Positions 1-59,010 are shown, numbered from the stretch's first letter. The stretch: DNA of 64,000 nucleotides from Paraspadella gotoi (GCA_051294375.1 CM119265.1:2911256-2975255); one strand, 5' to 3'. Numbers and translations: made by a program. Notes: generated by a model from the letters alone, not told the origin.

Positions 1-734
1 TTTTCAACTTGCATACGTTTTTCAACTTGCATACGTTTTTAAACTTGCATACGTTTTTAAACTTGCATCATTATCGTGCTCAATCACACACTTTCTTACC
101 CACACACAAAATTTAATCTCAATCTATCTATCCAATTATGATTAATTCGATAAATTATGGGTTAAAATTATTAAAAAGTTTCAAATAAAAGTGACTTTTG
201 TTTTTTCCATTTAAACTCATTTCCACTCGCACGATTCCATCTAAACTTTATATCCAGATTTAAGTTAATGTAACTTATATTTTTCCCATTTAAATTCATT
301 TCCACTCGCACGATTCCAGACTGACTGACGGACATCGTTTTTTTTTTTTTTNNNNNNNNNNNNNNNNNNNNNNNNNTCGGTCCCACCCATAATTCTTGTC
401 AGTAAATCATTTTATCATATCAGCACATCATATTATGATAAATTAAGCAAAAAAAAAAAAAAAAACGTTGTCCGTCAGTCAGTCTGGAATCGTGCGAGTG
501 GAAATGAATTTAAATGGGAAAAATATAAGTTACATTAACTTAAATCTGGATATAAAGTTTAGATGGAATCGTGCGAGTGGAAATGAGTTTAAATGGAAAA
601 AACAAAAGTCACTTTTATTTGAAACTTTTTAATAATTTTAACCCATAATTTATCGAATTAATCATAATTGGATAGATAGATTGAGATTAAATTTTGTGTG
701 TGGGTAAGAAAGTGTGTGATTGAGCACGATAATG

Positions 735-3448: not shown

Positions 3449-4612
3449 GTTGACCGATGGACCGACAAAGTGAATTATAGAGTCGGAATCTGGAGAAAGC
3501 AAATCCGACTAATAACCAGTAAAAATTATGGCAGAAAAGATTTAAAATAACGATTTAGAAAGAAAAGTAAGAAACTCTCACCCTAAGAATTAAGAAATGC
3601 TCACCCTCGTGCAAAGTCTTGAAAAGCCGCTTGGTCGCTCCGTCCAAGTTCCGACCTCCAGCGACGCCTGAATGCGTCCACATCGTCGACCAGATCAGCG
3701 CAAAGAGGCGGTCGTTTTTGTGCGACCGAACAGAGTTGAGGAACCATTCGTAGAGCCAACGGTCCTGAGGCGAGAGAAATGACAATGATGATGACAACGA
3801 CTATCACAATGACGAGTATAGAATCGAAAGTTAGAGATAAAGGATGAAAAAGAAGGATAGTAAAAATGATATGAAGGGTTAGGTAGGTTAAAAAAGATAT
3901 GAATTGAAAAATTTGAAAGAGGATAGAGAGAAAAGAAATAAGTAAGGTTAGTAAGAAATAAAAATGTGCAAGTAGAATTTTAAAAAGGATTGATATTAAG
4001 TCTGAAAGGAAAGAAGATACAAATTCGAGAAGGTGAAAAAATTTTAAAATTAAAAAAGATTGAAAGTCATAAAAGGTAGTAGAAAATAAAAAAGTTGGCA
4101 GAGCAGGTAAAATTAAAAGATTAAAAGGTTTTAGAGCATTTCGAAAAATGTAAGTTACCAATTAACCTGCGTAAAATGAGAGTAGCACTTCTTCCTGCAC
4201 AAATAAATAGGAATGGGGTTAGAAGTTCAGATTGACAAAAAGTTAACAAAATCTAATAAAAGTAATTTAATAACTGACAAAAAAAAAACAACTGCCAGCA
4301 ATAAAAATAAAAATACAAGACCTGCAGCGCTTGCAGTAGCGTGGCTCTTCCTTCAAAGAGTCATCAACGGCCAAGAGGAAATGACGAAAGTAATGGTCGG
4401 TCGGTTGCTGATGAAATCCCTCGGTCAAATAATTGAAAGTGTGAATGTCGTGACTGTCCTCACCAAACAGGGTCCAGTAGCTGTGCAGGAGGGGAAGGGG
4501 ACATTGGGAATAATGTTCACAATAATCTTGATTAACATAAATAAATATTATTTTTAATATTTATTAATATTTATTATTATTTTTATTGTTATTGTTAAAA
4601 TTATTATTATTA

Positions 4613-36433: not shown

Positions 36434-38854
36434 TAGGTCAGATCGAAAATTTTCCCAAATTTATCATATTCTCCGAAAAGGAGATTGTTAATAGTTAATA
36501 ATATTGAATATACATTATACATATTACGGTTAATAGTAGATCGTATGAGAGAGAGAGAGAGAGAGAGAGAGAGCGAAAAGCGACTTCTGAACTGAAGCAA
36601 TACTAAAGCTCATGGTTTTCTCTTTCTCTTCTCTTTCTCCTTTCTCTCTTCTTTTCTTTCCTAATAGTTTTCTCTTTCTCTTCTCTTTCTCCCTTCTTTC
36701 TTCTTTTCTTTCCTCTCTTTCTCTCTCTCTCATCTCCTCTCTTGTTTCCTATCTTCTTTCCCCCTCTCCCTCTCAACTTCATCCCTGGGAAAACAAAAGT
36801 GACCTTTGGCCTGATTGGCCACGAGATCGTGAGGAACCAACTTCCCTTTGGGGCCAAAGTTTTGTTTTTAGGAAAAACAGAATTGGTTTCTTTAAAAAGA
36901 TCGGATGTCAAGACTTCGATCGCGAGTTCGGGATGTAAGACGCCTGAGTTGACTGACTGACTGACGCTGAGTTGACTCTGACCTGATGATCTGGACGCTG
37001 AGTTGAATGACTGTTGACGCTGAGTTGACTGACTGACTGACGCTGAGTTGACTGACTTTAAACTACTCGATCGGATTTGAAATGTTTTACAAAAAGATGC
37101 ATCCTTAATTTTAAATTTTTATTTCATTTTGCAGTTAAGAAAATTTAAAATCGATGTACTCACAACCAGCTTTCATTATATTGTTAAATATTTTATAAAT
37201 AATTAATTTTAATATTTTTTTAAATTCATTTTAAATTTAGTTTTATATAGAAAAACAAGTATTTATTAAATTTTTCTTTCAAAAAAGAAAACTAAGAATA
37301 AAAATTAAAGAAATTTCGAGGTCAAGAAGGCAAATTGTAAGAACCCTAAAGTTTCTAATGTTCAAAACAATAGATAAGTCGAAGATAAATAGAAAAACAG
37401 TATTCGCAAAGGCCCCTACAACTAAGGCACGGTATTGCAAAAAAATTGGCCAAATATAGGAATCAATGTAAATCTTCAGGTTCTGACACATTCGGAAGAA
37501 CCATACATAATTACGCTACTTAGAAGTAACGCTTCCGTAGCGGCAATCTACAGAGGGACACGAGCTCACGTACACGACCAAAATATCAACAATCGATTAG
37601 TTTTATTCCTTTCAAAAAAAATGTTCATATTTAAAGTTACATCCTTTCCTAGTTAAAATTATTCGGTTTATACAAAAACTTTTAAATACGACAAAATATA
37701 CTGGTAGCAATCCTTAGTTTTGACTGCGTGAGTCTTTAAATATGTCCACAAAAGCTTTGAGTACATCGAATAAATTTTAAGATTTTCAAATTACTGCAAT
37801 ATGTAAATTACTCTAAAACTTAGGGAAAATTTGATCTCTTGTTTTCCGCCAAAGAATTACGACTAAAATATAAACAAAAATAACTTAAATTAAAAAAAAA
37901 CAAATATCAAGATATGGAATACAAATTGACAAATAGACAATGGAGACGTAAGTAGTGGAAAAACAAATAGAGTAGCTAAAATTGCAATTATTTTTTCCAT
38001 TTTTTGCGTCAGAGAAAATTCGCCTAAGTCGACTTTACATTTCGGTCGTTAATTAGCCAACGTTTACGGTTTCTATTTGAAATTGAAATCGAAAGGAATA
38101 GAATAGAATATAGAATAGCTATGGATTAGAAATAGAATGGAAGATAAATTTATGCAGAAATATTTTTTAGCATTTAGCAAAGAAAATCTCATCATGAAAT
38201 GAAAATCGTTTCATAAACTGAATTGATTCGCTTTTCTTCAATAACCTCCTTCCACAACAAAAATTTTAAACATTAAATATAATGAATTTAAAACAATCAA
38301 ACACATCAGCGCCGAAACTTACCTAGAAAGGTTGAGATCGGCGTCGGCCTTTTGATAATTCTCCGCGGCGACGCAGGATTGCTTGAAGGCGCGTTCGTAC
38401 TGCTTCTTCCCGCGCTCCAACTCCCCGAGCGACGCCTGGAGCTTTTTTTCGAAAGCGTCGGCCTCGGAGATTAATTTGCGTTTCTTTTGTCTGAAGGAAA
38501 AAAGAGGAAACTTTAAACAAAAACGGTACTAGTACGAAGAACTTTAGTTAATTTTATATCAGACTAAAACGGTTTCATGTCACTAATTTATACATTTAAA
38601 ATTACGAAATGTGCTTGTTTAAATTTCTGTCAATTTTTGGCAGCAAATAAATCATAAATTTGTTGTTAGTTTCTGTAAAGACTGAGAATAGAAAATATAA
38701 TTAAAACATTAAATAAAATAACAAATACTAGTATTACAATAACTGTAGGTTCCAAAGTTAATAAACTAACTAACTTTGCTTATCTTTATCGCCTTCTTGT
38801 CTCGACTTACTAAAAAAAAACTTTGTACATCTGGATATATATATATATATATTG

Positions 38855-38893
<39 letters not shown>

Positions 38894-41642
38894 ACGAACA
38901 AATAGTTTATGTTCTTCAATCCCATCACCAACATGAAAAACAACAATCAAAATATTTCAAGTACAAAAAAGAAGCGAAAGCGGGAGCCTCACTTAGTCGC
39001 CGCGAGTTTTACCGGCCCATAACATTCTCAGGGCTCGAACCCGGGACCATTGAGTCAACGATCAACGTCTCAAAAACACCCAAGTCGTCTTAAAAAACGC
39101 CGCCATTTTGAATTCTTTCGATAATATTCAAATAGAGGAGACGTGAGTCGCTCGACCCATTTGTCTTCTAAATTAAAAAGAACTTCGAGACTTCCGTTTT
39201 CGTCCACGGGAATGACGAAAGAAAAGTCAAACTCCTTGAAAGTCATCGTCTGCTCTGTCGATGTCGTCGTCGTCGTCTTCTTCTTCGTCGTCGTCTTCTT
39301 CGTCCCCTTTCCGCCAAGGAATTCTGTCGCCGATTTAACCGCTTTTTTCAAGATGGCGTCAGAGTCGTCGTTTTCATCGCAGTCGGAGATTCGGTCCGAA
39401 GAACTCGCACCCAAGGTGAGCAAAGAAGATTCGGGTCCGTCGTCGTAATCTTCATCATCGTTATCGTCGTCATAATCGTCGTCATAATCGTCGTCTTCGT
39501 TTTCATCTTTATCGTCGTTATCGTTGACGTCTTTCTCCAAACTTTTCCAAACTTCGGCAAAAACGACGGAGCTAACGTTCAGCATCAAAGCTTCCAGCAA
39601 AATCTTGCATTTCGTTTTGTCCGAATCAAAGCCTGTCAATTTCATGATGCGTAGCCTCGGGTACTTGATCGGCTCTGGGAACGGTCTCACCACGCGCTCT
39701 TCGAGAAGCCCATCGAATTTTATCGCGGGCTGTGGACGGAAAACGTAGCTAAGGATTTTCGGATTCTCGAGCTTTGAACCACACTTGTCGAGCCGTTTGA
39801 GGGTCTCTCGAGCGGCGTCGCCCATGACTCCGAAGAACTTGGACCTGAGTTTCTCTTCGATGTCGAGCAAATTGGTGAACTCGTTGACGGGATCGATGAG
39901 CAATGGATGCTGATTTTGGATGTGATGCGAGATTTTTTTTTTCTTTCCGAAAACGATTCTCAAGTTGTCCAGATTTTTGACGAGGAGGAGAAAATGACGA
40001 AAACATTTGAGCATCGTCCAAGGTCTATCGTTTACAGTGTCGCCATAAGCTTTGACGGCGAGCAATTCCAATATGTAGGCCTTGCCGTAGACGATTCCAT
40101 CGAACAGAACCGTCTGCGACCAGAATTTGGCCAACCGCGCCAGATCGGCAACGACGCTCGGTTGCTTCTTAAACCATTCTTTGCTCTGCCAAGAGAGAGT
40201 GAGGTGTTTGAAGGCCTCCTCCGGATCGGACGAATGCAGGGCCTCGTCGACGTCTTGGTTCCGCTGTTCCTCCGAAGGATCAGCCACGCCCTTGACGCTG
40301 TAGCGGACCGGGACGAGATCCAATGAAACTCCTTCGAAGAAAAAGTGAAGGAGAAACGAGGTCGATTTAAAGTCGGGAACTTTTAAATGAGTGGACCCAA
40401 TGAGAATGACCATCATTTGTTTGACGACGTCTTCGCGAAAAAGTTCTCGTCTTTCGTCCTCGTAGAAAATGACGGCGTCGACGTCGGCCTTTAATCGCGT
40501 CGAGGTGCGCTTGGAGAGTCCGCCCACGAATTCGTGACGGACGATTCGAAGATCCCGAGATCCATTTTGGATGAGGAGATCGACGACGCGCTGGAGGACC
40601 GCTTCGGCGTCCGCGACCCACTGAGGGGTCGGTTCTAAAGTCGCGGCGAAGCGTTTCAGAGGTTCTTCCGGTTTAATTTCTGTTTGTTCGTTCGTTTGAA
40701 TCGATTCGTTTTCCATCGTTTAGCGAATTAAAATATCCGTTGTGCGAAAAAACTTTTATCATAAGGTGCGTTTCGAATGATCATTAATATTCATTTTCAT
40801 TTAGTAAATTAAAAAAATCCTATAAGTAATCGAAACAACTTTATCATTCGATCAAATTAAAATATATGTAGTCGAAAGGATTAGAATTTTTAGATTTTAA
40901 GGCTATGTAGATTAAACATTAAATATAAAATCTCTTGGCGAGATAATTATATTTATTAACTAATTAAATCAAAGTTCGCTACGGTTATCACAAAACAAAA
41001 ATACCTGCTTAACTAATTCTCGGAAATTTCTTGCAGCCGGTTGAAGAATAAAAAACTGGTTTTATCATTCCGATTTGGTTTTGCAATTATATTTCATGTA
41101 AAGAACTTTTATTGACTCATTGAGAAAATCGAGAAAAATCCAGAAAAATCCAGAAATTGAGAAAATAATAAAACATAAATCTTCTGTGTTGTCTAAAGGA
41201 CTCGTTTGAGATTTTCCCCACGGATCCAGTTTCGTATAATCTCTGATTTTCTCATGGTTATCTAGTCGCGGGTACAGCTTTTTATATTTTAATTTATGAA
41301 ATAAGTGTAGTGAAGTGTGATGCTTTTAGGCGGGGTGAACCTATGCAATGCCCGACTACATAAGTAAAGGCAAATTCACTCAAAAGAGTTAAGACCGATT
41401 TTTTAATCACAATTGAATTTGTTTTATCAACACATTCGAATTTTAACAAAAATTAAAAATTTAAAAAAGAGAAAATCCACCAGTCTCTCTTCCTCACTCA
41501 TTTACTCATTCACTTATTTTTATTTAAACCCTGCGCGTATGTATATTTTTGGTCATATTTTATCTAATATATAATATTATGTATTCAAATATACTCAAGT
41601 GTCACCACATTCAACCAAGTCGCAATGACGGGCGCCCTCTCG

Positions 41643-41718
<76 letters not shown>

Positions 41719-44700
41719 CTGACTGAGCTTTTTGCTTGGAATTTTTAAGGCTACGTCCTCCGGCAACTGCTCCGACGGTCATGAGCAAAGACTCCAGCGT
41801 CATATTTACTCTTTTAGTGTTGTAAGACGGACTTACGTCTTTGGAGAGGGGGGGGAAAAGAAATTCGAGATATATTATTACTGAAAGTCTGAAAGTTTAC
41901 TGTCGGTGGAACAACAACGAGGTACCTGGTTTTCGAGAGAAAAAATCTACCAAGAATAAAATTTTAAATGTATTTATCATTTTATTGAATGGGTCCTGGG
42001 CTTGGAACCAGGCTTGAGGGTTTTCCACGCCCCCAAGGCGGTTTACGGCCGTCTTCAAACTTCCTGCAGAGTAAGTACCATTGGGGAGCGATCCCGGTAC
42101 CTAATGGTCATTAGCTGATATCATAATAGCATCAACGACAATGACAACAACAACAACAACGATCAACAGCAAACTGTCGCAACGATCGAATCCTGGTCAA
42201 TGGTCATTAGCTGCTATCATGAGGATTTCGTGGAGAAACTGAACCGCCTCATCCGCCTTTTTCAACCACTCTGGCGAGGGTTCTAAGGAGGCGGCGAACT
42301 TTTCGAGAAACTCGTTAATTTTTGACATTTTGTGGGGTATTTTTGTTGATGTTATTTTGTTATTTTTTTTTAATTTTCGAGCTTTAAAATAAGCTTGAAA
42401 CTCGTTGCAGTTATGCAAATGTATAGGAAAAAATTCTACGAAATTTGTAGACGAATTGATGAAAAAGATAGCCGACTCGAAAGCGAATGCGTAACGACAA
42501 AAATTCCTACTATCAAACGGAAAAGATTGTCTGAATTGAAAGAGTTCGTACTTCGCATATACACTTACCGTACATTGTACGTTAAACTGAGAAAGAAGTA
42601 TTGGCGCGAAAAAAAAAACGATCATGCCTCATCCTCATCCTCATCAAAACATTGATACGTAAGAGAAAAGAAATGAAGGACTCAAATTTTGTTTCATTTT
42701 GATTGGCGCGTTTTCGAAATTAGTTTCCAATTTTTTACATTTTTACATTTGAATCTTGGCAAAAAAAGTTACGCGAGGATAAACAAATTAGTAACCGGTT
42801 ATTATTTGTAATTTAGTCATTTATAGAATGAAAAGAGAACCTAAATCGTCCAGTCCTCACTGTAACATCGTAAACCAATGAACTCACCTCAAATCGGCCA
42901 CCACCGCCGCGACGTCGGCTGCAACTTCCTCGTTCAACTTTTCCGCGATGCTCTCATGTTTTTCCGCTTCGGTCGCCGTCGCAGTTTGCAGCGCCGCGAA
43001 AAGGGAAAAGTAGGTAAACTCGACATCGGCATCGCCTGGGGGAAAAAAACAAAGTAACAGTGAGGCTTTGTTAATTAATATTATAATATATCTATGATAT
43101 ATAAATAAGATATAATAACCATAATCAAAAGGGCACGTTTAAAAGAAAAAGTAATAATTATAATTATATCTGGTTTATTATTTATCGTTTGAATTTGTCT
43201 TAATTTATGAAATTCCGTCGGTTAATGCAATGATAAGTAAATCATGTTGTGAATATATCGATTTATTATTCTTTTTGTCATTTATTATTTTTTCAGTTTT
43301 AAAATTTCGATTACTTTAGATAATTCTCCATCAAGTTATCAATGTTTTAATCAATAAATTTCATATACCGAGAATAAATTTATACGTTAAATGCTTAGAG
43401 GGTAAAATGGTTACGACCCAATTTTTTTATCAGAATTTTAATTCACCGAAATAAAATTAAAAACTTTTTTTTCATTTTATTTTGTTTCCACTTTTCTCTT
43501 TATCACTTTCATCTACATCTTTTTTCCTCTCAATTATTTTCTTTATCACAATCTCATTCTCTCTTATTTTTGGCTCTCTCTCTCTCTCTCTCTCTCTCGT
43601 GCTTCTCTTTTCTTCTCTCTCTCTCTCTTCTCTCTCTCTCTTCTCTTTATCCCATCTCTCCCATCAACAAGCCTAGAATCTATGAACCCATTTTCCGTTG
43701 TTTTAACTTGGGTTTCGCGCTCTCTCCTTCTGGCCAACGCCTCTCTCTCTCTCTCTCTCTCTCTGATAGTTCGACACCCATTTCTCCACTGAAGTTATTC
43801 AATTTTTTTTCTTTATTGATTTTGTGATTCTGTCATTTTGTGATGTTATTCAGTGATAAAAAAAACTCGGAACTAAGATTGATGACCGCGTGAAAACTTT
43901 TAAGAAGACGACGACGACGACGACGACGACGACGAACAAAATCGCTGATTTTTCTTAAATTCAACTGATTTTCTCATTTAAAATTATCATGAAATTGGGA
44001 CAGCCAATATAACTAACAATTATCCATTCATTAAATAAATAAGCTATCTTGTTCATTGTTCAATGTTCATTGTTCAATGTTCAAGACTTTGGACAGGCTA
44101 TAGTCGGCCTCCTTCTCTATTATCAACTCCCAAAGAACCGAACAATAAATGAAGTTTTAAAATGATTTAAGAACTGTTTCAAATGTACAAGTCTTAGATC
44201 TTATTTAGTATTTTTAAGTATTATTTATCATATCTTTGTAAACTACATATTTCTTAATACAAATAAGAATTCATTAAATCCATTCGTTAATTTCCTGTTA
44301 AAATTGATAATAAATCTTCATTCTTCAATAAGACCTCTAAAGTTCTATTTTCTCAATTTTCAATCTGAATTTCTTTGTAAATTAATTTACGTTTCATTCA
44401 AATTCGTGACTTTGCATCTTTTTCCTCAATTTAAGTTGATCAATAGGATTTTGCTTTTTAAATTTAAATTAAAAGTTTTAATGGATGCGCCGTTTTCTTA
44501 AATTGAGGTTTCTCGTTTGTATATATATACGGTATATTAGTCAAAAAGGAAATATTATTATGTAATAGAGAATAAAAAGAGATATTAAGATGGACGATGT
44601 ATTAAGGGACGTGGCTTGTACGAATGTACGAATCTGAGAAAGAAAACTTTTTTCTTCCGAAGAAAAAAAGTGAAGTTCCCGCCAGATTTCATCTTCACAA

Positions 44701-46488: not shown

Positions 46489-47785
46489 TCCTCGGTGGCC
46501 TGAGGGTTTTTCTAAAAACCCCGACTGGGATCGAGACCTGGATCTGGACCCGAACCCGGGACCCGCACCCGGCGCACCCCGAAATCGGCGTCGACCTTGG
46601 CCGCGCCCCGAGTCCTGACCTCGAAATGAGACTTTTACCGCCTCTCATTTTACCATTTCTGGGACACCAGGGGGAAGAAGAAGGGGGGGAGGAGGAAGAG
46701 GAGGAGGAGGAGGAAAAGATTCGCCCTAGATTGGAGTGAATCTGGAGGCTGATCTTCCCGCGGAATTTCAAAAGTCGCGCAACTTAAAACGAATCACACC
46801 TTTAATAATCGGGTCATATTCATTCGGAGAGATACATTCGGAGGCCTTAAACCACCAAAGCCTGTCCAAAGTTAGGGGCAGGATAGCTTATTTATTAAAT
46901 GAATGGATAATTTCGACGTGTCGATAAAGGCTTTAAAAATGTTGTTCTTTTTTTTTGGGGTTACTTCGTCTGTCTTTTTAATGACCTTTTAATAATTTTC
47001 ATTTTTAATTTTTATTTTCTACTGTGACCCTTTAATAGTTCATAGTTTATAGTTCATAGTAGTATAGTATATGAAATTGGTACAACCAATATAAAAATTA
47101 AAAAAAATAAAAATATACGTAGTTCTTAAACTCACAGGAAAAACCGCTTGATTAAATGCTCAGTAACCCGTTTTACAACAATTACAATGAATTAGATAAT
47201 TTCATAACACAAAAGTTGTCGCCAACTGAGCTTTTTTGGGATCCGAGATTATTTTTTCTTTACATAACATTACATTACATTACAGACAATACTGTCAGAG
47301 TCAAACTTGTCTGTGAGTCTTAATTCAATTTTCAGGGTCTTTTTATGTTATTATCTTGTGAGAGGGATGGAGGCCCTAAACCCAACATGGCCTGTCCAAA
47401 GTAAGGGGCAAGATACCGTAATGAATAAATAATTTTTATATTGGTTGTATCAATTTAATTTACAATTCATTTACATTAAATTACTCTTTAATCTCTCTTC
47501 TTAATCTACCCAGAAATTTGACTTAGACTAAGCGACAGAAGTCCAAGCAACCCTCACCCCAAAACCTCACCTCCCCCCCAATTTATACTCACCCTTCTTC
47601 TTCGGCTGGAACGCCTTCACCAACTTCCTCAACCCCTTGGCGTGCTCCAGCTCCAGCTCCGCCCTCTGACGAACGAATTGGCCGAATCGCTCGCTGAATT
47701 CGATCCCTCGCTCCGTCGCGCGGACGAAGTTGTCCAGTTGATCCTTGGAGACGCGGATGCAGGTCGAAGCCTCCGTCAAGTACAT
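33322..47785 (-). CDS. F-BAR and SH3 domain protein, CIP4/FBP17/Toca-1 family
   Basis: Exons 47593-47785 ([49 protein letters not shown]), 42888-43035, 38323-38490, 36112-36377, 35429-35636 ([12 protein letters not shown]), 34567-34904, 34019-34242 and 33322-33641 (SH3: ALYDF...[11 protein letters not shown]...EGYAPTSY). A 1-nt frame deficit lies in exon 6. The start codon is uncertain. Confidence 0.88.
35105..35352. repeat. (GTCGA)n followed by (AAAACAAGTC)n simple repeats
   Basis: Directly visible tandem units. Confidence 0.85.
39070..40716 (-). CDS. OAS: 2'-5'-oligoadenylate synthetase-like nucleotidyltransferase, intronless, 548 aa
   Basis: [21 protein letters not shown] (hG[GS]...DxD), a third Asp in [42 protein letters not shown] and [14 protein letters not shown]. 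These parallel the OAS1 motifs GGSSGKGT..SDADLVVF, LIRLVKHW, YALELLTVYAW and PVILDPADPTGNL. Confidence 0.88.
   Translation of the reverse strand: MENESIQTNEQTEIKPEEPLKRFAATLEPTPQWVADAEAVLQRVVDLLIQNGSRDLRIVRHEFVGGLSKRTSTRLKADVDAVIFYEDERRELFREDVVKQMMVILIGSTHLKVPDFKSTSFLLHFFFEGVSLDLVPVRYSVKGVADPSEEQRNQDVDEALHSSDPEEAFKHLTLSWQSKEWFKKQPSVVADLARLAKFWSQTVLFDGIVYGKAYILELLAVKAYGDTVNDRPWTMLKCFRHFLLLVKNLDNLRIVFGKKKKISHHIQNQHPLLIDPVNEFTNLLDIEEKLRSKFFGVMGDAARETLKRLDKCGSKLENPKILSYVFRPQPAIKFDGLLEERVVRPFPEPIKYPRLRIMKLTGFDSDKTKCKILLEALMLNVSSVVFAEVWKSLEKDVNDNDDKDENEDDDYDDDYDDDNDDEDYDDGPESSLLTLGASSSDRISDCDENDDSDAILKKAVKSATEFLGGKGTKKTTTKKKTTTTTSTEQTMTFKEFDFSFVIPVDENGSLEVLFNLEDKWVERLTSPLFEYYRKNSKWRRFLRRLGCF
41720..42328 (-). 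pseudogene. Decayed OAS-like paralog (N-terminal and C-terminal remnants, SINE between)
   Basis: ATG 42328 gives [37 protein letters not shown], against [29 protein letters not shown] in the intact gene. 41740-41820 gives [13 protein letters not shown], against [13 protein letters not shown]. Confidence 0.65.
41991..42117 (-). mobile_element. SINE family 2 copy
   Basis: Matches 18937-19065. Confidence 0.7.
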
Positions 47786-48798
47786 CGTCAATTCGGGGGG
47801 AGAGGGCGTTTCAACGAAGGTTCTGAAGGGGGTGGTTGCGATGTTGATAGGGAGTTGGCGATTTTAAATGGAGGCTAACGAAGGTTTTGCGGTTTCGAGT
47901 TAAAGAGAGAAAAAGTGAGTCATTAATCCTCCTCGTTGTCGTTGTTGTTGTTACGTTCCATCGCACAAATTATTTCTTATCGTCGCATTTTTGATATTAC
48001 TTAGAATTTCGGGTCGGGCTCTTGTTGTAGTTGTTGTTGTCGTTGTAGTAGTTGCCCTTTTTTTTTAGTTCCGCTGCCTCGAGGCTTCGATATTTGATTT
48101 ATTCTTTCAATATTTTATCGCTCAGAAAAATATTTTCTCGGCGTTCCAGGAATATTTCAGTTTTGCTCGTAAATATTTGAAGGAGTTCTTGGAAGTTTTT
48201 GAGAAAAAAAAGTTCTTGGTCAGTGGCAGCCGTGGCAGTGGCAGTGTCACTCTTACGCAGTGGCAATCGTCGCAGTGGCAGTGTCACTCTTACGCAGTGG
48301 CAATCAACCTGGAATAAAATGTGTTACGATTTTTTAGTTCGAATTTTGTAAATTTGTGAATCCGTTAATTTGTGAATATGTAAATCTGTAGATATGTATA
48401 TTTGCATCCGCAAATTAACATATTTGTAAATGCATAAATCTTTGAATGTGTTTCTTCAAATCTGTAAATTTGTAAGTTTGTAAATCTATAAATCTGTAAA
48501 TTGTGATTCCGTGAATCATTAAATGAGAAGTCTCCGCTCTCAGCGAGTCACGTCTTGTCGTGAACGGACGTTGACTCCGTTCATCCATTACCGATTAAAA
48601 TTTTTGAGAGAGAGAGAGAGAGAGAGAATATCGATCAATTTACCAAAGAAGATTATATATACCAAGTATTATCCGCATCGAAAGAAAAATAAGGATTTTA
48701 TTGCCAAAAATCGATTCCCACCGAAATAAAAAAAAGATGTGACAAATTTCTTATCGATTGAATGTCAACTTTTGCCAACGAAAGTCTTCGTAGTCGTC

Positions 48799-48885
<87 letters not shown>

Positions 48886-50578
48886 CCTGAAAGAGATTGA
48901 AAAGTTAAAAAGCAAACAGACACACAACTTAAAAAACTCATTTATGCGTGACTTCTCATTAGAGCGAGAGATGTAATTTGAGTAAATAGAGAAGAAAGCG
49001 AAAGAGAAGAGAGAAGAGAAAAAAAAGAGAAAAAAAAAGAGAATTGTGAAGAGAGAAAAGAAAGAGAAAAAGAAAAGAGAAAAAGAAAAAAGAAAAATAA
49101 GGGAAAGAGAAAAGGAAGGGAAAGAGAAAGAGAAAAAGAAAAAAAAGAAAGAGAAAAAGAAAAGAAAGAGAAAAAGAAAAGANNNNNNNNNNNNNNNNNN
49201 NNNNNNNNNNNNNNNNNNNNNNNNNNNNNNNNNNNNNNNNNNNNNNNNNNNNNNNNNNNNNNNNNNNNNNNNNNNNNNNNNNNNNNNNNNNNNNNNNNNN
49301 NNNNNNNNNNNNNNNNNNNNNNNNNNNNNNNNNNNNNNNNNNNNNNNNNNNNNNNNNNNNNNNNNNNNNNNNNNNNNNNNNNNNNNNNNNNNNAGAAAAA
49401 GAAAAGAAAGAGAAAAAGAAAAGAAAGAAAAAAGGGAAAAGAAAGAGAAAAAGAAAAGAAAGAGAATGAGGCGAGAGAATCAAGTTGAAAAACCGGGGGA
49501 GACCGGAAAAGAGATTTTTTTTCTTTTTTTTTCTTTTTTTTCTTTTTCTTTTTTCAATTATACTTTTCACACATATTTTTTCTCGCCGTTTTAGGCCTTA
49601 TCTTTTCAGAAGCGCTCCATTTCATCTTAAATTCGGAATTAAATTAATTTTTATGTTTAAATTAAGGATAAGAAACGGATTAAGTATCGGGTTAATTATC
49701 AGGTTAAGGATTAGAGTTAGAGATTAGTTCATTGATTAAGTTTAAATTAAATGATTAAGTATTAAATTTAGTAATAGATTAAAATTAGATATTAAAAGTA
49801 ACTTTAAAAATAAAGGAACTGAAATTAGTCGGTTTTGGAAAAGAGAGTCTCGTTTTGTCTTTAGTAATTTTTTTTTTTCGATTGGGAAAGAGTCGACTTG
49901 ATCGGGAAAAAAATATTGAGTAGAGTCGCCAGCGAAATGTCACAATCGACAACGAAATATCACTGTCAGTGACGACAAATCAGTTGCTGAAGTACAATGT
50001 CAATGTTTGTGACAAAATGGCGGTTGTTCTTATCAATGGCAATGGCTGTTTATCAGAGTCGGCGACGAAATGAATATCATTCTTTATGATGGATTTCCGC
50101 TGTTTATGATAAAAATTTAAGTTTTTTTGAAAACGGCTTAAATTATGTTTTATATTCATTTGCTTAAAATTTAAGCTAAATATGCGAAAACCATAAATAT
50201 TTTAAATTTGAAAAAAAATGTTATTTCTGCTCTTAACCAAAAAATAAAAAATAAATAAATAAAAACTGTCGTCGCCTTAAAGATTAACTTCTTGATTTCC
50301 TTAATTCCCTTAAGAGACTCCGCCATTTAAGGAAAAAAAAACAGTCCCCCAAAACAAAAAAACATAGAAAACAGAAAAAGAAGCCGGTTTTCTTATTTTC
50401 TTTTTTTTTTTTTTTTTTTTGGGCAAAGTCCGCCCTCTTTCACACGGATGACAAATTTCACCGACAATTTTTTACTCTTTTTTCTTCTTTCTTTCTTAAT
50501 CTTAGCCATTCTAGATTGAGAGAGAGAGAGAGAGCGCAATAAGACGCCGTTTTGACAATACTTACTAAGAGAGAGAGA

Positions 50579-50625
<47 letters not shown>

Positions 50626-50924
50626 GAGAAGAGAGATATTAATAAAGTTTATGAGGGAGACGGAAGAAAGCGATAAGATAAAAAGATCGAGTTTCTAAAA
50701 GTCAGTATCTTGTTTGATGCTTCGTCTGCTTTTATTATTTCTTCGTTTTTTTTTTTTGTTTTTTTTTAGTAAAAAAATTGTTCATGATATCAGTAGATTT
50801 GTAGATTTTGTAATTGTGGTTTTTTGGTTTTTTTTTTTTTTTTTTTTTCAATTTAATTTTTTCTCTCTTTTCATACTGAAGTTTCAGGGCGAGATTCAAA
50901 AAATGGGAAAACATTAACAGTTCA

Positions 50925-50958
<34 letters not shown>

Positions 50959-51049
50959 CCTTTTAATTCTTTTTTTCCTCACTCTCTCTCTCTCTCTCTA
51001 TCTCTCTTCCCCTCCACTAAACTCACTCTTGTTTCGAATTCACGGTGAG

Positions 51050-51480
51050 AAAAATCTCACGCCGTCTCTAAAATCCTTGAAATTTCATTGGTTTTAAAAT
51101 ATTTTGCAGTTCCCGATTGGTCGGCTCCTCATTTCGCGTCCCAACGTCATCAATTTCAATCTTAATCGTTCCGAGCTTCCAATTGGTCGGTTAGATCCGA
51201 GAACAATTCTTTCCGATTAGTCAGATCAAGACACCCCGAACTCCCATTGGTTCAAATTTTGTTCTCGTCGCGGATGCTCGATTCCCATTGGCCGAATTCG
51301 AGAGAATCTCTCTCGCGACGTGATCGGAGAAAAAGTTGACTCGCGGCTTCGAGGTTCCGCTTCTGTGGATTCGAACGCGACCGTCGAATAGGATGGTCGC
51401 CGCCACACCGAGGAATCTTTTATTTGGGGACAACAGATGGCTCGAACGGGTCTTGGGGGTGACGAGAGATTTTCGAACGG
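51050..51480. promoter_or_regulatory. CpG-rich putative promoter with clustered CCAAT boxes
   Basis: At least five ATTGG/CCAAT motifs and a TCTCGCGA motif, upstream of the F-BAR gene. Inference only. Confidence 0.35.
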
Positions 51481-52280
51481 TCACAGATGGTTATTTTTTC
51501 GGGGCGATAGATGGTCGTTTGTGATTTTGGTTGGTGGCGGTAACGTTCGGGCGTAAGACCGTATAGGGATAGATTGACGAAAAGGTTCCAGAGTTTTGAA
51601 TATGCTCTGTATGGTGATCAGTGATTACTCTCTCTCTCTCTCTCTCTCTCTCTCTNNNNNNNNNNNNNNNNNNNNNNNNNNNNNNNNNNNNNNNNNNNNN
51701 NNNNNNNNNNNNNNNNNNNNNNNNNNNNNNNNNNNNNNNNNNNNNNNNNNNNNNNNNNNNNNNNNNNNNNNNNNNNNNNNNNNNNNNNNNNNNNNNNNNN
51801 NNNNNNNNNNNNNNNNNNNNNNNNNNNNNNNNNNNNNNNNNNNNNNNNNNGCTTCGCAGGGCGAGACGAGCCAATGAATGGGGCAACACGTGGAACCAGA
51901 CAGAAACGAGATTAGCGGAATAACATCGAGGGATTCTAATCTAATTTTAATCTAGAGAAGAAAAAAATTAAAATAGTTAGTCACTTTTTAGTAGACGTAT
52001 TAAAAATAATTATATTAAATTTTATATACATTTTGGGGGAGAGTTTTGTGTCGTCATTGTTATTTTATTTCACAAGAGGTTTGAATTTTTTTGGCTGTGA
52101 GCCTCACCTATTCACAAATCACGGAATGTAAAGAGAGAGAAAGTGTGTGTGTGTGTTAGTGTGTGAGAATGGGAAAGAGAGAGTGAGAGACGGAGACATG
52201 AGTCACGTTCACACAAAAGGAAATGAGGGCTCGAGTCCTCAAAATCAAGAGATTATCAAGAGAAATCATCTCGAATGGAA

Positions 52281-52397
<117 letters not shown>

Positions 52398-52687
52398 CTT
52401 TTCGCTTTATGTTTCTTTTGTAACGAAAATTTTTCTTCAAATAAACAAATGTTTTATCAAACATTTCCTGTTTTTTTTTTTTCGGAAAAAAACGAAAACA
52501 AATACAAGATTTTTTTTGTTTAACGAATTTCTGTGATTGGTTTTTAAAAATCTGACAGGAAACAGATGTGAAGCCGGTGAGAGGTGAACGTTTTCCACGG
52601 TTGTTTGTTTGAAAGTTAAAAAGTATTTTTTTACTAATTATTTTTCTTTTATTTGCAGTCGATTGGTACTTCAATTTAGCTGACATT

Positions 52688-52749
<62 letters not shown>

Positions 52750-52816
52750 ATTTGTTTTCTTGCATCCTTATACTTGGGTCAGCCTTTCCAAAAACACCGG
52801 CTGAAACTAAGACCAC

Positions 52817-54814
52817 CCCGAACCCGGACCCGCCCCGGCGCACCCGAAATCGCGTCGACTGGCCGCGACCCGAGTCCTGACCTCGAAATGAGACTTTTTA
52901 CCGCCTCTCATTTTTACCATTTTCTGGGACACCAGGGGAGAAGAAGGGGGGAGGAGGAAGAGGAAGAGGAGAGGAAAGATTCGCCCTAGATTGGAGTGAA
53001 TCTGGAGGCGATCTTCCCGCGGAATTCAAAGTCGCGCAACTTAAAACGAATCACCACCTTTAATAATCGGGTCATATTGTTCATCGGAGAGATTACATTC
53101 GGAGGCCTTAAACCACCAAAGCCTGTCCAAAGTAGGGCAAGGATAGCTTATTTATTAATGAATGGATAATTTCGACGGTCTGATAAAGGCTTTAAAATGT
53201 GTTCTTTTTTTTGGGGTTACTTCGTCTGTCTTTTTAATGACCTTTAATAATTTTCATTTTTAATTTTTATTTCTACTGTGACCCTTTAATAGTTCATAGT
53301 TATAGTTCATGAGTAGTATGAGTATATGAAATTGGTACACACAATATAAAATATTAAAAAAAATAAAAATATACGTAGTTCTTAAAACTCACAGGAAAAA
53401 CCGCTTGATTAAATGCTACGTAACCCGTTTTTACAACAATTACAATGAATTAATATTTCATAACACAAAGAGTTGTGCCAACTGAGCTTTTTTTGGATCA
53501 CGCGATTATTTTTTTCTTTAGCATAACATTACTTACATTACATGACATACTGTCAGGAGTCAACTTGCTGTGAGTCTTAATTCAATTTTCAGGGATCTTT
53601 TTTATGTATTATCTTGTGAGAGGGATGAGAGCCCTAAACCCACATGCTGTCCAAAGTAAGGGGCAAGATACCGTTAATGAGATAAATAATTTTTATATTG
53701 GTTGTATCAATTTAATTTACATATCATTTACATTAAATTACTCTTATAATCTCTCTCTTAATCTACCCAGCAAATTTGACTTAGACTAGCGACAGAAGTC
53801 AAGCAACCCTCACCCCAAACCTCACCTCCCCAATTATACTCACCCTTCTTCTTCGTGCTGGAACGCCTTCACCAACTTCCCTCAACCCCTTGGCGTGCTC
53901 CAGCTCAGCTCCGCCCTCTGACGACGAATTGGCCGAATCGCTCGCTGAATTCGATCCCTCGCTCGCGTCGCGCGGACGAAGTGTCCAGTGATCCTTGGAG
54001 AGCGGATGCAGGTCGAAGCTCGTCAGTACATCGTCAATTCGGGGAGAGAGGCGTTTCAACGAAGGTTCTGAGGGGTGGTTGCGATGTGATAGGAGTTGGC
54101 GATTTAAACTGGAGGCTAACGAAGGTTTTGCGGTTCGAGTTAAAGAGAGAAAAGTGAGTCATTAATCCCCTCGTTGTCGTTGTTGTTGTTACGTTCATCG
54201 CACAAATTATTTCTTATCGTCGCATTTTGATATTACTTAGAATTTCGGGTCGGGCTCTGTTGTAGTTTGTTGTTGTCGTTGTAGTAGTTGCCCTTTTTTT
54301 TTAGTTCCGCTGCCTCGAGGCTTCGATATTTGATTTATTCTTTCAATATTTTATCGCTCAGAAAATATTTTCTAGGCGTTCCAGGAATATTTCAGTTTTG
54401 CTCGTAAATATTTGAAGGAGTTCTTGGAAGTTTTTGAGAAAAAAAAAGTTCTTGGTCAGTGGAGCCGTGCAGTGGCGTGTCACTCTTACGCAGTGGCAAT
54501 CGTCGCAGTGGCAGTGTCACTCTTACGCAGTGGCAATCAACCTGATAAATGTGTTACGATTTTTTCAGTTCGAATTTTGTAATTTGTGAATCCGTTAATT
54601 TGTGAATATGTATCTAAATATGTATATTTGCATCCGCAAATTAACATATTGTAAATGCATAAATCTTTGAATGTGTTTCTTCAATCTGTAAATTTGTAAG
54701 TTGTAATCTATAAATCTTAATTGTGATCCGTGAATCATTAAATGGAAGTCTCGCTCTCAGCGAAGTCACGTCTTGTCGTTCATCCATTACGATTAAAATT
54801 TTGAGAGAGAGAGA

Positions 54815-54865
<51 letters not shown>

Positions 54866-55262
54866 GAGAGAGAGATGGTTTCCCGTGATTCTGTGTGTTG
54901 GGGTTTTTTCTGCGGCGTGTTAGTTTAGTTGAATCTGGGAGATAAAGATAGAGGAAGAGAGAGGAGATAGAGGAAGAGAGAGAGATAGAGAAGATGAGGA
55001 GAGAGAGGAAAGAGAGAGAGAGGAGGAGAGGAGAGAAGAGAGAGAGAGAGAGAGAGAGGAGAGAAGAGAGAAATATCGATCATTACACAAAGAAGATTAT
55101 GATATACCAGTATTATCCGCATCGAAAGAAAAATGAAGGATTTTATTGCCAAAATCGATTCCCACGAAATAAAAAAAAGATGTACAAATTTCTTATCGAT
55201 TGAATGTCAACTTTGCCAACGAAAGTCTTCGTAGTCGTTCGTCATCTCTCTCTCTCTCTCAT

Positions 55263-55310
<48 letters not shown>

Positions 55311-56975
55311 ATCTCTCTCTCTCTCTCTCTCTTCTAACCGAAAGGAGATTGAAAAGTTAAAAGCAAACAGACACACAACTTAAAAACTCATTTATGCGTG
55401 ACTTCTCCATTAGAGCAGAGAGATGTAATTTTGAGTAAATAGAGAGAAAGCGAAAGAGAAAGAGAAGAGAAAAAAAAGAGAAAAAAAAAGAGAATTGTGA
55501 AGAGAGAAAAAAAGAGAAAAGAAAAGAGAAAAGAAAAAGAAAAATAAGGGAAGAGAAAAGAGGGAAGGAAAGAAAAGAAAAAAGAAAAAAAAGAAAGAGA
55601 AAAAAGAAAAGAAGAGAAAAGAGAAAGAAAGAGAAAAAGAAAGAAAGAGAAAAGAAAGAAGAGAAGAAAAAGAAAGAAAAAGAAAAGGAAGAAAAGAAAA
55701 GAAGAAAAAAGAAAGAAAGAGAAAGAAAGAAAAAAAGAAAGAAGAGAAAAGAAAAGAAAGAGAAAAAGAAAAGAAAGAGAAAAAGAAAAGAAAGAAAAAA
55801 AGAAAAGAAAGAGAAAAGAAAGAAAGAGAAAAAGAAAAGAAGAGAAAAAAAAGAAAGAAAAAAGGGAAAAGAAGAGAAAAAGAAAGAAAGAATGAGGCAG
55901 AGAATCAAGTTGAAAAACCGGGGGAGACCGGAAAAGGATTTTTTTTCTTTTTTTTTCTTTTTTTCTCTTTTTCTTTTTCAATTTACTTTCACACAATTTT
56001 ATTTTTTCTCGCCGTTTAGCCTATCTTTCAGAAGCGCTCCATTTCATCTAAATGGAATTAAATTAATTTTTATGTTTAAATTAAGGATAAGAAACGGATT
56101 AAGTACGGTTAATTATCAGGTTTAAGGATTAGTTAGAGATTAGTTCATTGATTAAGTTTAAATTAAATGATTAAGTATTAAAATTTAGTAATAAAAAAAT
56201 TAGATATTAAAAGTACTTTAAAAAATAAAGGAACTGAAATAGTCCGGTTTTGGAAAAGAGAGTCTCGGTTTTGTCTTAGTAATTTTTTTTTTTCGATTGG
56301 AGAGAGTCGACTTGATCGGGAAAAAAAATATTGAGTAGAGTCGCCAGCGAAATGTCACAATCGACAAACGAAATATCACTGTCAGTGACGAAATCAGTTG
56401 CTGAGTACAATGTCAATGTTGTTGACAAATGGCGGTTGTTCTTACAATGCAATGGCTGTTTATCAGATCGGCGACGAAATGAATATCATTCTTTATGATG
56501 GATTTCGCTTGTTTATGATAAAAATTTAAGTTTTTTGAAAACGGCTTAAATTATGTTTTATATTCATTTGCTTAAATTTAAGCTAATATGCGAAAACCAT
56601 AAATATATTTTAAATTTGAAAAAAATGTTATTTCTGTGCTCTAACCAAAAATAAAAATAAATAAATAAAAACTGTCGGTCGCCTTAAAAGATTAACTCTT
56701 GAATTCCTTAATTCCCTAAGAGACTCCGCATTTAAGGAAAAAAAAACAGTCCCCCAAAAACAAAAAACATAGAAAACAGAAAAAGAGCCGGTTTCTTATT
56801 TTCTTTTTTTTTTTTTTTTTTGTGGCAAAGTCCGCCCTCTTTCACACGGATGACAAATTTCACCGACAATTTTTTACTCTTTTTTCCTTCTTTCTTTCTT
56901 AATCTTAGCCATTCTAAGATTGGAGAGAGAGAGAGGAGAGCGCAATAAGACGCCGTTTTGACAATAACTACTAAG

Positions 56976-57043
<68 letters not shown>

Positions 57044-58031
57044 TATTAATAAAGTTTATGAGGGAGACGGAAGGAAAGCGATAAGATAAAAAGATCGAGT
57101 TTCTAAAGTCAGTATCTTGTTTGATGCTTCGTCTGCTTTTATTATTTCTTCGTTTTTTTTTTTTGTTTTTTTTAGTAAAAAAATTGTTCATGATATCAGT
57201 AGATTTGTAGATTTTGTAATTGTGGTTTTTGGGTTTTTTTTTTTTTTTTTTTTTTCAATTTAATTTTTTCTCTCTTTTCATACTGAAGTTTCAGGGCGAG
57301 GATTCAAAAAAATGGGAAAACATTAAACAGTTCATTCTCTCTCGTCTCTCTCTCTCTCTCTCTCTCTCTCCTTTTAATTCTTTTCTTCCTCCTCTCTCTC
57401 TCTCTCTCTATCTTCTTCCCCTCCACTAAAACTCACTCTTGTTTCGAATCACGGTGAGAAAAATCTCACGCCGTCTCTAAAATCCTGAAATTTCATTGGT
57501 TTTAAAAATATTTTGCCAGTCCCGATTGGTCGGCTCCTCATTTCGCGTCCAACGTCATCAATTTCAATCTTAATCGTTCCGAGCTTCCAATTGTCGGTTA
57601 GATCCGAGAAACAATTCTTCCGATTAGTCAGATCAAGACCCCCGAACTCCATTGGTTCAAATTTTGTTCTCGTCGCGATGCTCGATTCCCATTGGCCGAA
57701 TTCGAGAGAATCTCTCTCGCGACGTGATCGGAGAAAAAGTTGACTCGCGGCTTCGAGGTCTCCGCTTCTGTGGATTCAACGCGACGTCGAATAGGATGGT
57801 CGCCGCCACACCGACGGAATCTTTTATTTGGGGACAACAGATGGCTCGAACGGGTCTTGGGGTGACGAGAGATTTTCGAACGGTCACAGATGTTATTTTT
57901 TCGGGGCGATAGATGGTCGTTTGTGATTTTGGTTGGTGGCGGTAAACGTTCGGGCGTAAGACCGTATAGGGATAGATTGACGAAAAGGGTTCCAGAGTTT
58001 TGAATATGCTCTGTATGTGATCAGTGATTAA

Positions 58032-58065
<34 letters not shown>

Positions 58066-58519
58066 GATGTCCAGAAACTAAAAAACAAAAAAAGCCTCAG
58101 GGTTTTCAGCAGATCTCTCTTTTCGTAGACAGTTGACTCGAGTGGCTTCGCAGGGCGAGACGAGCCAATGAATGGGGCAACACGTGGAACCAGACAGAAA
58201 CGAGATTAGCGAATAACATCGAGGGATTCTAATCTAATTTTAATCTAGAGAAGAAAAAAATTAAAATAGTTAGTCACTTTTAGTAGACGTATTAAAAATA
58301 ATTATATTAATTTTATATACATTTTGGGGGAGAGTTTTTGTGTCGTCATTGTTATTTTATTCACAGAGGTTTGAATTTTTTGGCTGTGAGCCTCACCTAT
58401 TCACAAATCACGGAAGAGAGAGTGAGAGAACGGAGACATGAGTCAGTTCACACAAAAGGAAATGAGGGCTCGAGTCCTCAAAATCAAGAGATTATCAAGA
58501 GAAATCATCTCGAATGGAA

Positions 58520-58593
<74 letters not shown>

Positions 58594-58899
58594 ATCTTTT
58601 CGCTTTAGTTTTTTGTAACGAAAATTTTTCTTCAAATAAACAAATGTTTTATCAAACATTTCCTGTTTTTTTTTTTTCGGAAAAAAACGAAAACAAATAC
58701 AAGATTTTTTTTTGTTTAACGAATTTCTGTGATTGGTTTTTTAAAAATCTGACAGGAAACAGATGTGAAGCCGGTGAGAGGTGAACGTTTTCCACGGTTG
58801 TTTGTTTGAAAGTTAAAAAGTATTTTTTTACTAATTATTTTCTTTTATTTGCAGTCGATTGGTACTTCAATTTAGCTGACATTTCTCTCTTCTTTCTTC

Positions 58900-58943
<44 letters not shown>

Positions 58944-59010
58944 ATTTGTTTTCTTGCATCCTTATACTTGGGTCAGCCTTTCCAAAACACCGGCTGAAAC
59001 TAAGACCACC
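52817..59010 (+). repeat. Noisy tandem duplicate of ~46549-52816 (probable assembly/gap-fill artefact)
   Basis: Collinear copy with abundant 1-nt indels, including a frameshifted copy of the first F-BAR coding exon at ~53840-54030. Confidence 0.85.

Follow-up and report, generated by a model that had tools for sequence, protein, structure and literature searches.

The window analysed here, a stretch of 64,000 nucleotides, carries on its minus strand a single-exon open reading frame of 548 amino acids (39070..40716), which an ORF scan, Pfam, HMMER and a predicted model together mark as a tailed nucleotidyltransferase of the OAS superfamily. The frame agrees with the first-pass annotation and has no internal stops, and its GC content is higher than that of its flanks. 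It lies within a 4397-nt intron (38491..42887, minus strand) of a second gene transcribed in the same direction. In the junction test, the join 42888/38490 was the single one of the four junctions tried that has GT..AG ends, with GTGAGT at the 5′ end (42887) and a pyrimidine tract followed by CAG at the 3′ end (38491). It leaves the F-BAR-like frame continuous between the host coding exons upstream (42888..43035) and downstream (38323..38490) of the intron, both on the minus strand. These canonical ends and the in-frame exon join support, as a predicted gene structure, the nesting that had been claimed for the ORF. Because other exons of the host match FCH (E 7e-12) and SH3 (E 1e-07), we regard the host gene as CIP4/FBP17-like. 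Such nesting in an intron is ordinary.

The neighbouring genes modelled within the first 60 kb of the window are rich in introns, in agreement with the earlier description, with at least six coding exons in the host and about eight ORF pieces in each DUF229 copy. The DUF229 copies form a tandem array of about five multi-exon genes to the left of the host (3500-32000, minus strand), and their exons are 74-90% identical. A head-to-tail repeat of about 6 kb (46549-52817 versus 52817-59010, 88-94% identity) contains a second copy of the host FCH exon (53780-54158), which is frameshifted. This repeat is likely an uncollapsed or noisy assembly duplicate, and possibly a real tandem duplication. A diverged 2.7 kb minisatellite with strong strand skew occupies positions 730-3453, and the long open frames found there are repeats and not genes. 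The gene content suggests that the source organism is an invertebrate animal.

The description of the ORF as intronless holds for its coding region, and a 5′ UTR intron is still conceivable. Since the ORF lies on the same strand as the host and within its transcription unit, it might also serve the host gene as an alternative last exon, which would produce an F-BAR-OAS fusion sensing RNA at curved membranes. We consider such a fusion highly unlikely: an in-frame stop is located two codons 5′ of the ATG, no acceptor with at least 11 pyrimidines in 15 is found within 384 nt 5′ of the ATG, the splice would halve the F-BAR domain, and the close relatives of the ORF product are stand-alone proteins with the same start. 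Instead, the nested gene is likely transcribed as its own unit from inside the host intron. Neither AATAAA nor ATTAAA occurs between the ORF stop and the host splice acceptor. On the minus strand of the intron there are 12 Inr-like hexamers, and for this reason none was taken as a promoter. An Rfam search of the host intron returned a (TA)n artefact only. About 30 nt past the ORF stop, a tRNA B-box-like sequence, GGTTCGAGCCC (39030-39050, minus strand), could be a SINE fragment; Rfam gave no match at this place.

The core of the ORF product (residues 15-325; 39742..40674, minus strand) consists of a pol-beta NTase lobe followed directly by an OAS1_C lobe, as delimited by the VIA-align alignment to 4rwn and by the OAS1_C match. 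The first-pass annotation had called the product an OAS-like enzyme and had named three Pfam families for comparison by HMMER. The first, OAS1_C (PF10421), matched the query above the Pfam cut-off (E 2.1e-07, 31.2 bits versus 19.9) and was also found in 90 of the 118 alignment members. The second, NTP_transf_2 (PF01909), gave no match to the query at E≤1 and matched five of the 118 family members; consequently, the NTase lobe was established through its motif and predicted fold instead. The third, Mab-21 (PF03281), had no match in the query at E≤1 and none in the 118 members at E≤0.001, and the DZF Pfam domains matched neither the query nor the alignment members. DZF proteins (NF45/NF90), inactive members of the OAS fold, have lost the catalytic acids. 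In the ESM Atlas, OAS clusters came first, at 0.97, and DZF clusters lower.

The AlphaFold model of the query has a pLDDT of 83 and a pTM of 0.85, with pLDDT above 90 in the core. Its best structural match in VIA-align is porcine OAS1 4rwn (Z 23.9, rmsd 3.3, 284 residues aligned), and the top three matches are all OAS1 (Z 23.9-23.6), followed by CdnC (Z 22.7) and poly(A) polymerase (Z 21.8). Because CdnC lies within about one Z unit of OAS1, the fold alone does not fix the product. A family profile built from 118 sequences drawn from HMMER matches, the query included, recognised human OAS2 and pig and human OAS1 at E values of 1e-61 to 1e-35, and then E. coli CdnC at 3e-26.

Members of the pol-beta superfamily carry the motif hG[GS]x9-13Dh[DE]h, together with a third carboxylate on the following strand. 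The signature claimed for the ORF is indeed intact. Alignments place it at residues 64-80 (40477..40527, minus strand) in the form hG[GS]..DhD, with V64-G65-G66 and D78-V79-D80, and the third aspartate, D133 (40318..40320, minus strand), aligns with human D148 and is Asp in 95 of 106 relatives. Residues D78, D80 and D133 thus correspond in the alignment to D75, D77 and D148 of human OAS1, and the query and 83 of the 94 relatives spanning the site retain the whole triad. The second position of the signature is Ser in 64 and Gly in 24 of these 94 relatives; as the latter mostly belong to the query's own subclade, Gly66 does not indicate decay. Residues K69, R194, K197, W199 and E217 are also conserved in the query and the family. 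The OAS1_C match, a fold closest to OAS1 and the intact D78/D80/D133 bear out the earlier assignment, and on sequence and predicted structure the ORF product is a nucleotidyltransferase of the OAS superfamily whose active site is intact.

To our knowledge, no characterised member exists among the unnamed tailed OAS proteins, such as TRY80898.1 (Tigriopus californicus), PIK53188.1 (Apostichopus japonicus) and CAJ1370787.1 (Effrenium voratum). These proteins belong to the query's clade and share its core-plus-tail organisation at 430-490 aa. They differ from it in that the 64-aa acidic insert and the basic amphipathic last helix belong to the query, and in that the T. californicus protein has a CaaX-like end. 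An HMMER search with residues 1-389 returned 224 representatives at E≤0.001 (best E 4.6e-44, 37% identity), and among the matches listed (150 of 224) the best identity to any relative is about 35-37%; word-based protein searches returned two relatives, and a search with the F-BAR exon of the host yielded no match. Most full-length relatives are 430-490 aa long and have a conserved domain of about 125 aa past the OAS unit. A source label is available for five of the 22 clusters examined, and all five are eukaryotic. The labelled tail-bearers are T. californicus, A. japonicus, E. voratum and the EukProt model Tk06734, which we take to be from a second copepod, and among labelled relatives, those nearest to the enzyme are from copepods.

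Phylogenetic placement was examined with IQ-TREE on 32 rows hand-picked from the 99 of a FastTree run and rooted with two plasmid CdnC proteins; the rows chosen favour relatives of the query and include no vertebrate OAS or cGLR. The 25 tail-bearing rows formed one clade (96/91), apart from five tail-less units that include Amphiura. Within it, the query was paired with P0003 (98/98) in a group of 12 rows with copepod proteins (88/89, below the starred level). The tail-less echinoderm OAS units (P0032) fell outside the query's clade, and a topology joining the query to the tail-less units was rejected (p-AU 0.025). Overall, these sequences place the query in what is apparently an undescribed tailed variant of OAS, found in copepods, a sea cucumber, a dinoflagellate and many unnamed proteins. 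The dinoflagellate cluster (P0013, E. voratum) forms a tailed-OAS subgroup among animal sequences in the tree, a position that could reflect ancient inheritance or transfer.

The tail of the query is an unnamed C-terminal domain (residues 326-516; 39169..39741, minus strand), delimited by a tail profile and models, with the element order beta-beta-alpha-alpha-beta-beta and split by an acidic loop. This loop is a low-complexity insert (residues 394-457; 39346..39537, minus strand) with 31 D/E in 64 aa that is predicted to be disordered, and it is not present at that place in the 29 relatives of alignment A1. A first tail profile, built from 29 relatives, matched 72 of 152 proteins, 43 of which were outside the training set; many of the non-matching proteins are fragments, and 13 proteins of at least 400 aa had no match. 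The query's own tail was not matched by this profile at E<1e-3. A second profile, built from 55 tails with the query left out, was used with shuffle controls and with the composition correction off. It scored residues 326-548 of the query at 17.1 bits versus a shuffle maximum of 6.5 (none of 500 as high) and residues 451-525 at 15.2 bits versus 5.7. The model of a relative's tail (pLDDT 91) has two strands, two helices and two strands, and the query model shows the same element order, with the 64-aa acidic loop separating the two helices. Two relatives of about 975 aa (P0058 and P0097) contain two complete core-plus-tail units in tandem, indicating that the tail duplicates along with the enzyme.

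Pfam analysis of 46 tails found no family common to more than one member and no Dynein_light or ubiquitin match, and a ubiquitin match was also absent from the query. The tail had no match to PDB sequences under E 0.29, no Foldseek match at E≤0.001 and no significant match in the ESM Atlas. The lack of matches in these four resources does not show a new fold. When the tail was compared with 48,161 chains in VIA-align, the top seven matches were dynein-complex or light-chain-like proteins (Z 5.9-4.1). About 80 residues were aligned with dynein light chains at rmsd 3.4-4.8 and 4-13% identity (best Z 5.9, rmsd 4.1, 81 aligned), and these Z values lie below the 7-8 typical of unrelated best matches and within the range of common arrangements. 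The resemblance of the modelled tail to an LC8-type dynein light chain is therefore treated as a lead only. A homodimer prediction for a relative's tail (P0125, residues 137-267) scored 0.00, with the alignment unused and the fold uncertain. No description of the tail was found in the literature covered, which comprised titles, the starts of abstracts and parts of open texts, with subscription papers outside this coverage.

At its end, the protein is predicted to form a basic amphipathic helix (39073..39138, minus strand), with Cys second from the end. The helix spans residues 527-544 in a low-confidence part of the model (pLDDT about 55), and its hydrophobic moment of 0.89 is the second highest of any 11-mer in the protein. 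These properties of the model make it a possible membrane anchor. CaaX-like C-terminal tetrapeptides are present in three relatives of at least 400 aa (P0075, P0102 and P0114, of the copepod subgroup), a possible convergence with human OAS1 p46, for which the CaaX anchor is reported to be required to reach viral replication membranes (PMC10683996).

The first-pass annotation had proposed that the gene was retroposed or otherwise acquired. Our results do not support this origin: no poly(A) tract or flanking repeat was found, codon use is host-like, and the eukaryotic relatives are far closer than CdnC (best E 4.6e-44 versus 2e-4). Specifically, no A-run of at least 8 occurs in the 579-nt 3′ flank of the ORF, and no repeat of at least 13 nt is common to both flanks, although such traces can be lost in old retrogenes. 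The codon use of the ORF correlates with that of the host exons (r 0.55), whereas the controls, from shifted frames, the antisense strand and intron DNA, gave 0.17, -0.03, 0.27 and -0.15.

The OAS superfamily is reported to branch inside CD-NTase clade C (PMC10732462). The CdnC enzymes of CBASS (6p80, 6u7b) approach the query in fold, and plasmid cyclases (L001, L002) have weak sequence similarity to it (25% identity, E 2e-4). In contrast to these systems, the query has no operon and no HORMA, Trip13 or NucC neighbours, and is found in a spliceosomal intron, surrounded by animal genes with several exons; its similarity to CdnC is far weaker than that to eukaryotic relatives, and CdnC has no tail. 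If the gene were a bacterial or viral CD-NTase gained recently by horizontal transfer, this would agree with the absence of introns, with the matches of plasmid CBASS cyclases at E 2e-4 and 2e-2, and with a topology tying the query to the two CdnC rows, which was not formally rejected (p-AU 0.057). However, the query nests among eukaryotic OAS-like proteins with the CdnC rows as outgroup, every labelled cluster is eukaryotic, and the codon use is that of the host. Likewise, no relatives emerged when viral, metagenome and prokaryote contigs were scanned for patterns and phages were searched by tblastn, approaches that detect close relatives only. We regard such an acquisition as very improbable.

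A different origin is suggested by a paralogue remnant in the same intron (42197..42328), located upstream of the ORF on the same strand at a distance of 1.5 kb. It consists of 43 codons that match the first helices of the OAS core, followed by a stop, and was supported by tblastn (40% over 35 aa, E 6e-4), tblastx (E 1.4e-6) and shuffling (alignment score 76 versus 27±4, none of 2000 shuffles as high). The sequence past its stop had appeared by eye to be a later part of the gene. This extension was rejected, as 551 of 2000 and 464 of 2000 shuffles equalled it and the family profile gave no match. A 15-bp direct repeat (42213-42199 and 42117-42103, minus strand) brackets a short (GTT)n-rich insert exactly at the stop of the remnant, and the two may mark the event that broke it. 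Farther upstream (42568-42590, minus strand), 240 nt before the ATG of the remnant, lie an Inr-like TCAGTT and, 22 nt beyond it, a strong donor, ACG|GTAAGT; the pair may represent a non-coding first exon of the remnant or of the intact gene, and may also be due to chance. The origin of the gene is best accounted for by local duplication and decay within a multi-copy family, although an old retroposition is conceivable.

The remnant raises the question of whether the ORF is itself a young or dying copy, either retrocopy or duplicate, that is silent or drifting catalytically like its neighbour. A decayed paralogue 1.5 kb away, the absence of a canonical poly(A) signal, the long acidic insert and several departures from the family consensus would be consistent with this. 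Nevertheless, the frame is open over 1647 nt and the catalytic and core residues are all kept at about 35% identity to the nearest relative, which together with the host-like codon use and the absence of a poly(A) tract and target-site repeat makes a dying copy improbable. Sequencing data point the same way. One of three sequencing runs (run X1) contains the ORF sequence, and its contigs showed no substitutions over 40139-40591, 39452-39866 and 38958-39125. The one change is a 12-base in-frame gap in the contig matching 39452-39866, which probably represents length variation in the acidic tract. As this run also covers non-coding intron DNA, at the same depth (3.98 versus 4.1), it looks like DNA. 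In other contigs of the run, the match is confined to the two motifs that are conserved best (about 85-93% identity); these contigs hint at further paralogues or at another organism in the run.

We then considered what the enzyme might respond to and what it might make. By alignment, K179 and K183 of the query occupy the positions of R195 and K199 of human OAS1, where the substitutions R195E and K199E are reported to reduce activity to 3% and 0.4% (PMC3961380). In 75 of 109 relatives, Val occupies the R195 position; a signature of RNA sensing therefore does not extend to the whole family. The acceptor residues of pig OAS1 are given as S186, T187, T190 and Q193 (PMC6307210), and none of the four is identical in the query, which has H171, L172, S175 and S178. 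Nor do H171 and W176 follow the family consensus: 69 of 109 relatives have Ser at the former position, and 73 of 109 have Glu at the latter. In sponges, loss of T187/T190 is linked in the same source to 3′-5′ products. Judged by these residues, the acceptor pocket is unlike that of vertebrate OAS1, and the product may be other than pure 2-5A.

These observations leave room for an OAS-family enzyme that is active but does not sense RNA. Such an enzyme would make mixed 2′-5′/3′-5′ nucleotides or short nucleotides of other kinds, either constitutively or when the tail receives a protein cue, much as a protein partner switches on the related bacterial CdnC, and its role would lie in stress or regulation and not in antiviral defence. 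The divergent acceptor pocket and the mostly non-basic R195 position in the family are in keeping with this possibility, as are the near-equal closeness of the CdnC fold and the proposal that ancestral OAS were dsRNA-independent makers of 2-5A and 3-5A (PMC6307210). However, both critical basic residues are kept in the query, and paralogue birth and death and the high divergence from any relative would fit immune genes. We consider a non-sensing enzyme a real but rather unlikely possibility.

The reading we prefer, with a probability of about 0.55, is that the locus encodes an intact, tailed OAS-superfamily enzyme, expressed from its own transcript within the host intron, that would respond to dsRNA by making short adenylate messengers and would serve in antiviral defence without RNase L; its function and expression we infer. 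In this mechanism, RNA would bind a basic face that includes K179 and K183, and ATP would then be joined into short oligomers, with a linkage or base choice that is probably looser than in vertebrate OAS1, given the differences in the acceptor-pocket residues. The tail would bind partners or promote assembly, from the position that ubiquitin-like domains occupy in vertebrate OASL, and the last helix would tether the enzyme to membranes in the way that prenylation tethers OAS1 p46. The gene itself would most likely have reached the intron by duplication within a multi-copy family, and not as a fresh retrocopy. Because RNase L is confined to jawed vertebrates (PMC10400998), in agreement with the vertebrate restriction stated in the first-pass annotation, any output would be RNase L-independent.

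The query shares with vertebrate OAS1 and OAS2 (OASa; 4rwn, 4ig8, 9h1z) the two-lobed fold, the catalytic triad, the lysines equivalent to K66 and K213, and basic residues at the R195, K199 and R210 positions. It differs from them in its sequence (about 20% identity), in Gly for Ser in the GS motif, in the acceptor pocket, in a non-ubiquitin-like tail of about 125 aa and in its single coding exon, and RNase L is not expected in an invertebrate. Compared with the OASa group of jawed vertebrates (OAS1-3/OASL), it lacks the ubiquitin-like tail, and its relatives are invertebrate and protist. With the non-vertebrate OAS, both OASb (PMC10400998) and the sponge, cnidarian, mollusc and springtail enzymes (PMC6307210), it has in common the lack of RNase L, a patchy distribution and gene birth and death, whereas no conserved C-terminal domain is described in the parts of those two papers covered here.

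The earlier suggestion of a new system was overstated. OAS without RNase L are documented in four sponges and eight other invertebrates, including cnidarians, molluscs and a springtail (PMC6307210), and OASb is patchily distributed across unikonts (PMC10400998); when two vertebrate OASb were assayed in yeast in that study, neither was coupled to RNase L. OAS-like proteins are reported from 8 of 12 eukaryotic supergroups (PMC10732462). A sponge OAS is described as dsRNA-independent (PMC6307210), Nematostella OAS1 is listed among poly(I:C)-responsive genes (PMC8476169), and 2-5A binds ABCF proteins in Drosophila lysate, with no antiviral role shown there (bioRxiv 10.1101/2023.03.21.532770). The gene is a real, intact and nested OAS-family member of the tailed variant, and is not a new system by itself. 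The role of OAS in animals without RNase L is presented as an open question (PMC10400998; bioRxiv 10.1101/2023.03.21.532770), and the present gene does not answer it.

The tail does provide a concrete handle on this question: distant eukaryotes have retained it in the place that vertebrate OASL gives to ubiquitin-like domains, and the proteins that bind it could point to the effector that is missing. With its altered acceptor pocket, the enzyme is also one whose product merits identification. In a broader proposal, which we put forward as doubtful, tailed OAS would be a distinct, unrecognised branch in arthropods, echinoderms and dinoflagellates, whose messenger would not be the vertebrate 2-5A. 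The tail, possibly a repurposed dynein-light-chain-like module, would couple RNA sensing to an RNase L-independent effector, and membrane anchors would have been gained repeatedly, as CaaX boxes and as amphipathic helices.
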